From Escherichia coli O157:H7 (GTDB taxonomy: Bacteria > Pseudomonadota > Gammaproteobacteria > Enterobacterales > Enterobacteriaceae), in assembly GCF_013167455.1 (NCBI RefSeq), contig NZ_CP038328.1: a stretch of DNA of 64,000 bases, one strand, 5' to 3'. Every line of letters starts with the position of its first letter. Within the stretch, counting starts at the first letter, position 1. The notes below the pieces were generated by a model. That model worked only from the letters and a program-made list of their open reading frames with translations. It ran no database searches and was not told the DNA's origin. Both the position numbers and the translations under genes were made by a program. This document shows positions 22,017 through 22,175 of this stretch, in pieces.

Positions 22017-22135
22017 CGTAAAATCCTTTTGAAATAAATAAGAACCAGAAGCCTAGCGCCAGTCAACAACAGGAAATGATAATGAGTTAACACCCCGGAA
22101 TTTTTCAGAATTTATAAAAGGCAAATTACAGGCAC

Positions 22136-22162
22136 AAAAAAAGCGCCGTGCGGCGCTTTTTT
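22136..22162 (-). terminator. Intrinsic terminator of rpmE
   Basis: aaaaaagcgccgtgcggcgctttttt: GC hairpin flanked by A and T runs just downstream of the rpmE stop. Confidence 0.75.
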
Positions 22163-22175
22163 CGGAAATCCGGTC

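Follow-up and report, generated by a model that had tools for sequence, protein, structure and literature searches.

The gene pair considered here, rpmE (ribosomal protein L31) followed by a large rhs gene carried on an Rhs element, lies in a 64,000-nucleotide stretch of the Escherichia coli O157:H7 chromosome (contig NZ_CP038328.1, assembly GCF_013167455.1), hereafter the window. A sequence-only reading had placed rhs about 160 bp downstream of rpmE and had raised the possibility that it is expressed from a weak local promoter or by read-through of the rpmE terminator, the latter coupling toxin expression to ribosomal-protein transcription. The open reading frame (ORF) list and Pfam matches bear out the adjacency, with a gap of 159 bp (22175 to 22017), and the terminator lies in the sequence at exactly the coordinates that had been proposed (22136-22162), for which no strand had been named. 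The distance of about 120 bp from terminator to rhs start also stands, the ATG at 22016 being 120 nt from the end of the T-tract. rpmE, terminator, leader and rhs are all on the minus strand:

22176..22388, minus strand: rpmE coding sequence, L31, 70 amino acids (ORF list; RefSeq annotation of an identical genome; Pfam Ribosomal_L31, E 5.7e-32).
22136..22162, minus strand: intrinsic terminator of rpmE, A6-GCGCC-GCAC-GGCGC-T7 (sequence; RNA fold).
22122..22128, no strand: left junction of the inserted Rhs element, K-12 and O157 being identical up to ...TTTTTTTGTGCCTG and then differing.
22101..22122, minus strand: BglJ-RcsB-like activator box GCCTTTTATAAATTCTGAAAAA, 14.6 bits with a position weight matrix (PWM) from 8 K-12 target sites.
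22112-22105, minus strand: core of the box, AATTCTGA, whose centre, the first T of TTC, is at 22110, -94 from the rhs ATG.
22038..22066, minus strand: candidate core promoter TTGACT (22066-22061)-17-TCTTAT (22043-22038), 9.1 bits in a PWM scan.
22024..22028, minus strand: Shine-Dalgarno sequence AAGGA of rhs, within AAAAGGATTTTACGATG, a block identical in K-12 rhsB in the alignments.
17832..22016, minus strand: rhs gene, 1394 amino acids (ORF list; Pfam RHS_repeat, 1.1e-68, DUF6531, RHS and DUF4329).

The gap has two parts: core genome for the first 40-50 nt past the rpmE stop and, for the remaining ~110 nt, the 5' end of the inserted Rhs element. K-12 carries the empty site, in which rpmE and yiiX are convergent and 60 bp apart. 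Identity between O157 and K-12 runs from rpmE through the terminator to ...GTGCCTG / TTTTTTTGTGCCTG (~22129) and ends 8-14 nt past the T-tract; therefore, the ~110-nt leader is part of the inserted element, although the exact position of the left junction is ambiguous because AATTT is common to both alleles. About 5.5 kb in O157 takes the place of 12 bp of K-12 spacer and consists of the rhs leader, the rhs core and tip, the small ORF dsORF-f3 (whose "f3" we take to point to Hill's RhsF), and an IS1 remnant. This insertion, set against the empty K-12 site, is as expected of an RhsA/B/C/F-subfamily Rhs element at the rpmE-yiiX site. Its layout was already catalogued: it is the Rhs "locus 11" placed between yiiX and priA by Jackson et al. 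(2009; PMC2935791, Table 3), that is, Hill's RhsF (z5488 in EDL933).

A 901-bp query spanning the rpmE-rhs gap matched many O157:H7 chromosomes at 100% identity. Among 5,426 complete E. coli genomes, the rpmE-rhs junction was found in 2,174 (~40%), and the leader occurred once per genome in 2,176, with at least 99% identity in 2,171 of those. Since rpmE-rhs adjacency is found only in part of E. coli, it reflects a lineage-variable insertion and not a conserved gene pair. One of the 5,426 genomes, that of O157:H7 strain TR01 (NZ_CP033605.1), has 44 nt corresponding to window positions 22128-22085 (2457-2500 of the extracted locus, L141), including the whole box, replaced at the same length by a stretch that O121-type strains have, letter for letter, as their empty-site spacer plus yiiX 3' end. 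It may be an artefact of assembly or else a rare recombinant; a real one would be a natural box-deletion allele.

The leader was aligned with the regions upstream of K-12 rhsA, rhsB, rhsC, and rhsD and with E. albertii and Lelliottia rhs leaders. Only two blocks were conserved among the aligned leaders, one upstream A+T-rich block and the SD (ribosome-binding) region, the latter being represented by AAAAGGATTTTACGATG, which the RhsF and rhsB leaders share exactly. In RhsF, the leader starts with TTTTATAAATTCTGAA, a match to the box (core wwTTCykA) that validated K-12 targets of BglJ-RcsB carry; since the block begins a few bases from the insertion junction, the element starts with it. The RhsF and rhsB leaders have equal box-to-ATG length and are 48% identical overall, with most of the identity falling in the box and the final 18 nt, a pattern that suggests constraint on the box, its spacing, and the ribosome-binding site. 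The predicted promoter of rhsB is also at the same place. As for differences, the RhsF box scores 14.6 bits versus 22.5 and 21.0 for rhsB and rhsA, reads TTCTGAA where those read TTCCTAA, and is followed by an unrelated leader middle.

Scanning metagenome contigs for the conserved region of the rhs start codon yielded 117 leaders, 42 of them unique, and the same scan of species-representative genomes yielded 3 loci. Every A/B/C/F-type metagenomic leader had a box at -94 or at -106 to -108; no such box was present in the rhsD-type, rhsE-type, or vgrG-linked leaders of this set. The same leader architecture stands behind the unrelated genes nikR, ybfA, and ilvN, and the rhsA leader is divergent from yibF; rhsC still has the ybfA terminator upstream of its box. 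In Lelliottia sp. V86_10 (L008, 10741-11140), rhs starts 111 nt past the stop of an ilvN-like gene that lies downstream of ilvB, and the box begins ~7 nt past the ilvN stop with no intrinsic terminator between the two. The rhsC-type and E. albertii leaders (L005/L081) have a second, inverted box-like site (15.2 bits) at ~-124, 17 nt upstream of the main box. An inverted look-alike at ~-200 in another class of Rhs leaders (L036 and L074; 17-19 bits) was not counted, its core being imperfect. The RhsF leader RNA was no more stable than its shuffles (z = +0.6), with no sign of a structured RNA element, and an Rfam scan of the leader returned nothing, its sub-threshold small-RNA matches fitting only the terminator hairpin.

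BglJ-RcsB sites have been mapped at bgl, leuO, molR, sfsB, ygiZ, ynbA, ynjI, ykiA, and yidL, with the core wwTTCykA (Salscheider, Jahn and Schnetz 2014; PMC3950696). The same study predicted sites for rhsA and rhsB, both ranked within the 14 best genome matches, and cites microarray up-regulation upon BglJ expression; RhsF fell outside it because K-12 lacks RhsF. We fetched the upstream regions of the nine K-12 targets and located the core in eight of them (bgl, molR, sfsB, ynbA, ynjI, ygiZ, leuO, and ykiA). The flanks of the eight sites aligned gap-free. As a check, the position of the bgl site was converted with an offset between two MG1655 sequence versions that we take to be 1,977 bp. The site so located lies 96 nt upstream of the published Pbgl start, in agreement with Salscheider et al. 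(2014). Examples of the located sites are:

bgl and molR: CTTTATAAATTCCTAA
sfsB: CTTTATATATTCTGAA
ynbA: CTTGATATATTCTGAA
ygiZ: ATAAATATTTTCTGAA

A 22-column PWM built from the eight sites gave leave-one-out scores of -7 to 24. Its matches in the Rhs leaders, with the conserved upstream block and the box centre relative to the ATG, were as follows:

RhsF: block TTTTATAAATTCTGAAAAAT; box 14.6 bits; centre at -94.
rhsB: block TCTAAATATATTCCTAAAAAT; box 22.5 bits; centre at -94.
Lelliottia: block CTTTATATATTCCTAAAG; box 25.5 bits, the best-scoring; centre at -93.
rhsA: block ATATAAATATTTTCCTAATT; box 21.0 bits; centre at -106.
rhsC: block as in rhsA; box 18.8 bits, as in E. albertii; centre at -107 in both.

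The RhsF box had the top PWM score in the window on either strand, with a per-position probability of 2.3e-6 and an expectation over the leader of 5e-4, or 0.012 at a background of 65% A+T. It contains the core followed by A (AATTCTGAA at 22112-22104), its full-motif score falls at the low end of the leave-one-out range, and its orientation is as expected, with the presumed RcsB half-site toward the gene and the same as in the K-12 rhsB and rhsA leaders. The other PWM matches in the window, at 42180 and 7003, were without the TTCykA core and were set aside. An RcsA-RcsB box was also considered; TaAGaatatTCctA fits its right half only (7 of 14 positions), and the BglJ-RcsB form was preferred. 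The activator gene bglJ is present in 5,413 of the 5,426 complete E. coli genomes, the O157:H7 copy being 99.9% identical.

With regard to the core promoter, the sequence-only reading had called none with confidence in the leader, and a consensus scan likewise passed no sigma-70 site there. The best candidate, TTGACT-17-TCTTAT, has a predicted start at ~22031 that would leave a very short 5' untranslated region (UTR) just before AAGGA; its rhsB equivalent, at the corresponding place, is TTTTCG-17-TAAAAT. The distances from box centre to predicted start are 81 nt in rhsB, 57 in rhsA, and, measured from the weak predicted promoter, ~79 in RhsF. Published BglJ-RcsB box-to-start distances form a series of 57 / 65-68 / 76-79 nt, with 79 at ykiA and 76 at bgl P2 (Salscheider et al. 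2014; PMC3950696). The three predicted distances fall on this series; for RhsF, the distance to the statistically weak candidate would lie within the range of 52-79 nt expected of a BglJ-RcsB site. A weak core promoter also fits an activator-dependent promoter, which is a matter of consistency and not evidence.

Between rpmE and this leader stands the terminator, a G+C-rich hairpin followed by a U-tract 3' of the stop codon. It begins 13 nt past the rpmE stop and consists of five G-C pairs, the 4-nt loop GCAC, and U7, with an RNA fold of -20.2 kcal/mol (z = -3.2 versus shuffles). A simple terminator scan missed the GCGCC/GGCGC stem and gave instead two overlapping sub-optimal hairpins (22147-22131 and 22151-22132). 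The sequence is unchanged in K-12 and makes up all that is functional in the 60-bp convergent rpmE/yiiX spacer there; its symmetry makes it potentially bidirectional. rpmE and rhs do not have the features of an operon: a terminator intervenes, and the adjacency is not conserved (2,174 of 5,426 genomes, and absent from K-12). The SMRT-Cappable-seq (single-molecule real-time) tables had no entry for rpmE, rhs, or yiiX.

Further features flank those listed above:

22496..22525, minus strand: promoter-like site of rpmE, TTTGCA-18-TATGAT, the single consensus promoter match within 21800-22700.
22395..22447, minus strand: L31 ribosomal-protein leader, the autoregulatory 5' UTR of rpmE (Rfam RF03157, 60.1 bits against a gathering score of 33.2, E 1.8e-12).
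17508..17830, minus strand: dsORF-f3, a putative immunity gene, frameshifted in O157 (RefSeq frameshifted pseudogene).
16746..17438, plus strand: IS1 transposase remnant, right part of the Rhs element (RefSeq annotation mapped onto the window; ORF at 16746).
15993..16602, plus strand: yiiX and the right insertion junction, K-12 identity restarting at 16602 (junction 16602/16603).

For the priA/rpmE spacer, the part of the RpoD genomic SELEX (systematic evolution of ligands by exponential enrichment) table of Shimada (2014) consulted gives hexamers identical to those of the rpmE site. That part lists TTTGCA-18-TATGAT under priA, yet in the window the site is on the rpmE strand and faces rpmE; the divergent priA/rpmE promoter assignments may be swapped in the table.

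The rhs gene has a G+C content of ~0.6 in its core and ~0.3 below 18300, and its tip, with DUF4329, follows the PxxxxDPxGL motif, with a small ORF downstream, as in an Rhs ORF. No PAAR_motif was found in the protein by Pfam at E <=0.01; DUF6531 occupies residues 46-123, and the N-terminus includes KPAARQ. The gene is an "orphan": neither vgrG nor eagR lies next to it. In O157, dsORF-f3 is 323 bp and frameshifted, its translation ending after 78 codons at a G-run, and in E. coli W it is intact (324 bp, 107 amino acids); 592 genomes matched the O157 form at >=99% identity and 1,577 at 95-99%. Names for the gene clash: it is rhsC in RefSeq (Prokaryotic Genome Annotation Pipeline), RhsB (z5488) in Vazquez-Lopez (2020), and RhsF as implied by the dsORF-f3 label, and the "RhsF" of Zammit (2025) is another locus, ECs0604. 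A literature search by Z5488/ECs4864 gave no expression data for this locus in the texts examined.

On the other side of the element, yiiX lost the terminator that it shares with rpmE in K-12 and now faces the small ORF, the IS1 remnant, and the antisense rhs tip (15993-17440, plus strand); a terminator scan past the yiiX stop in O157 gave no clear terminator. An unannotated 33-codon ORF (16605-16706, plus strand), MMKKIIPAVVCLLLCSCTTFPQAVAPVNGDASN, begins 4 nt past the yiiX stop (16601), on the right-hand border of the Rhs insertion, and resembles a lipoprotein signal peptide with a lipobox-like LCSC.

The anatomy of the gap, its junctions, the box match, its conserved position, and the presence of bglJ being matters of observation, the reading we favor, and regard as somewhat probable, is that rhs has an element-borne promoter that is activator dependent and normally silent and that the terminator shields it from rpmE. 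An Rhs element would have inserted between the rpmE terminator and yiiX, bringing its own leader. That leader would comprise a BglJ-RcsB-type box at the very edge (-94), a poorly conserved A+T-rich spacer with a weak sigma-70 candidate, and a conserved ribosome-binding region. Full-length rhs would then be transcribed from the element's own activator-dependent promoter, which would be off in ordinary conditions because bglJ is H-NS repressed and the leader is A+T rich, and the terminator would insulate rhs from heavy rpmE transcription.

Several points weigh against this reading. The PWM is built on eight sites that we located ourselves by means of the published core motif. No other box of the family scores as low as that of RhsF, which, alone, is not genome-wide significant, with 37% of simulated 64-kb windows yielding one match of >=14.6 bits. 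Since a chance match is so common in 64 kb, it is the homologous position, and not the score alone, that gives the case its strength. BglJ control of rhsA and rhsB is itself predicted, with the cited microarray in addition. The core promoter candidate is at chance level, 28% of composition-matched shuffles reaching its score, and its -10, TCTTAT, is without the conserved A at position 2; moreover, the A+T-rich box resembles a -10, TAAATT, for which TTGTGC 17 nt upstream gives an alternative promoter. Binding of BglJ-RcsB, the start site, and H-NS silencing at this locus are all deduced from sequence, as is the efficiency of the terminator.

The last of the promoter points can be made into an explanation of its own, in which the conserved block is the -10 of an edge promoter whose -35, TTGTGC, comes from the core-genome side, giving a leader of ~86 nt. 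A TA..TT hexamer does occur in the block of every leader, TTGTGC-17-TAAATT is the second best candidate in the RhsF leader (8.0 bits), and TTGAGT-16-TATATT is the best in that of Lelliottia (10.4 bits). However, at each locus the -35 would have to be supplied by flanking DNA that is unrelated, and rhsA, rhsB, and rhsC have a poor one; conservation reaches into TTC(C/T)(T/G)AA, which is needed by the BglJ-RcsB core and not by a -10. In addition, the RpoD SELEX data in the portion of the source consulted list promoters for the rhsD and rhsE spacers, with none seen there for rhsA, rhsB, or rhsC. We consider this explanation very unlikely. A different possibility is that the upstream region is irrelevant in O157, full-length rhs never being meaningfully expressed and the locus decaying, with any activity coming from internal transcripts for the toxin tip and immunity gene. 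This would agree with enterohemorrhagic E. coli (EHEC) Sakai, where full-length rhs starts are inactive at another locus and internal promoters drive toxin-immunity transcripts, and with Salmonella, where the rhs upstream fragment P1 was without reporter activity; the frameshifted downstream ORF, the IS1 remnant, and the orphan state of rhs point the same way. Yet the 1394-codon ORF is intact, the leader is >=99% identical in 2,171 genomes, and conservation of the box and of the ribosome-binding region extends over paralogues and genera, which argues for selection on upstream control. The internal Salmonella promoter P2 was looked for at the homologous position and is not conserved (TTGACG -> ATGATG; TACAAT -> TACAAC). 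We judge a wholly idle upstream region to be improbable.

Read-through from rpmE, as the sequence-only reading had proposed, is an explanation of similarly low standing. It holds that some of the very abundant rpmE transcripts run on past the terminator and account for most rhs mRNA, so that basal Rhs would follow ribosomal-protein transcription. rpmE, as a ribosomal-protein gene, is presumably very highly transcribed, the two genes are co-directional with 119 nt from T-tract to ATG, and, since the local promoter is weak, a few percent of read-through could dominate. The G+C stem is just 5 bp and of the symmetric bidirectional type, of which the ynaJ-uspE example released only 9-39% of polymerases in one-sided transcription, so that such terminators can be weak by themselves, and the Rhs insertion moved the convergent partner yiiX 5.5 kb off. 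Of seven rhs loci inspected, six share the direction of the gene upstream of them, a bias that is nevertheless not significant (binomial p ~0.06), and in Lelliottia the position of the box leaves no space for a terminator, which makes read-through more plausible there than in E. coli. Against these stand the uninterrupted U7 after the hairpin and the A6 before it, a canonical strong design that is identical in K-12; the 60% of E. coli genomes without rpmE-rhs adjacency; and rhsA, which has the same leader though it is divergent from its neighbor. The frameshifted putative immunity ORF of O157 would also be easier to tolerate if full-length rhs were essentially off. We thus regard read-through as a minor rival, one compatible with activator-dependent expression, and low rpmE read-through could add a growth-linked basal level of rhs on top. 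Of the two routes suggested earlier, the weak local promoter is the one upheld, in the sense that the leader is element-borne, has no good constitutive sigma-70 site, and carries a BglJ-RcsB-type box; positive evidence for read-through was not found. The further claim, that toxin expression is coupled to ribosomal-protein transcription, is not supported; the K-12-identical hairpin and U7, the genomes in which the two genes are not adjacent, the occurrence of the leader behind unrelated genes, and the toleration of a frameshifted putative immunity ORF speak against it.

The favored reading, that of an activator-dependent promoter borne by the element, lends itself to extension. We tentatively propose, with rather less confidence, that the BglJ-RcsB box is an integral part of the 5' edge of RhsA/B/C/F elements that travels with them and that the orphan Rhs toxins might form one RcsB-wired, co-induced regulon. 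If true, an element landing behind rpmE, nikR, ybfA, or ilvN would arrive pre-wired to the RcsB envelope-stress hub, and there would be a concrete route to switching on the long-silent rhs genes of E. coli, whose conditions of expression as orphans are a long-standing puzzle. What is new here is the BglJ-RcsB-type box at the RhsF locus and its positional conservation across A/B/C/F leaders. This is a modest extension of the published prediction, which it turns from one for two K-12 genes into a family-level hypothesis covering rhsA, rhsB, rhsC, RhsF, and another genus, including a pathogen locus. For annotation and transcriptome work, rhs should be treated as a separate regulated unit and not as the tail of a ribosomal-protein operon.

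Comparisons with known systems bear on each part of the locus. Bidirectional intrinsic terminators separate convergent genes (Ju 2019; Wang et al. 2022, preprint), and at ynaJ-uspE head-on collisions are needed. The K-12 arrangement, an A-tract, hairpin, and T-tract standing alone between convergent rpmE and yiiX, is of this kind, whereas in O157 the insertion converts the convergent pair into a co-directional rpmE-rhs pair. In EHEC Sakai and Salmonella, full-length rhs starts are silent, H-NS represses the T6SS (type VI secretion system), and internal promoters express the toxin tip and immunity gene; in K-12, the spacers upstream of rhsD and rhsE have RNA polymerase sites with overlapping H-NS, according to the part of the RpoD SELEX source consulted. 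Like Salmonella STM0291 and EHEC ECs0604/0603, the O157 gene is a large rhs gene with an upstream start from which no laboratory expression is expected; it differs from them in being an orphan, those genes lying in vgrG/T6SS islands, and in its lack of a conserved Salmonella P2. In Serratia, T6SS expression is tuned by RcsB, which makes it biologically plausible that an Rhs effector has an RcsB-linked switch. Compared with the validated boxes, TTTATAAATTC of RhsF is identical in bgl and molR, and its TTCTGAA is identical in sfsB, ynbA, ynjI, ygiZ, and ykiA; RhsF has the first conserved C of CTTTAT shifted by one base, and the Rhs box is a candidate site. The closest counterpart is locus 11 itself, with the same chromosomal position, G+C-rich core, A+T-rich tip, and dsORF-f3, and with no differences: it is the same element.

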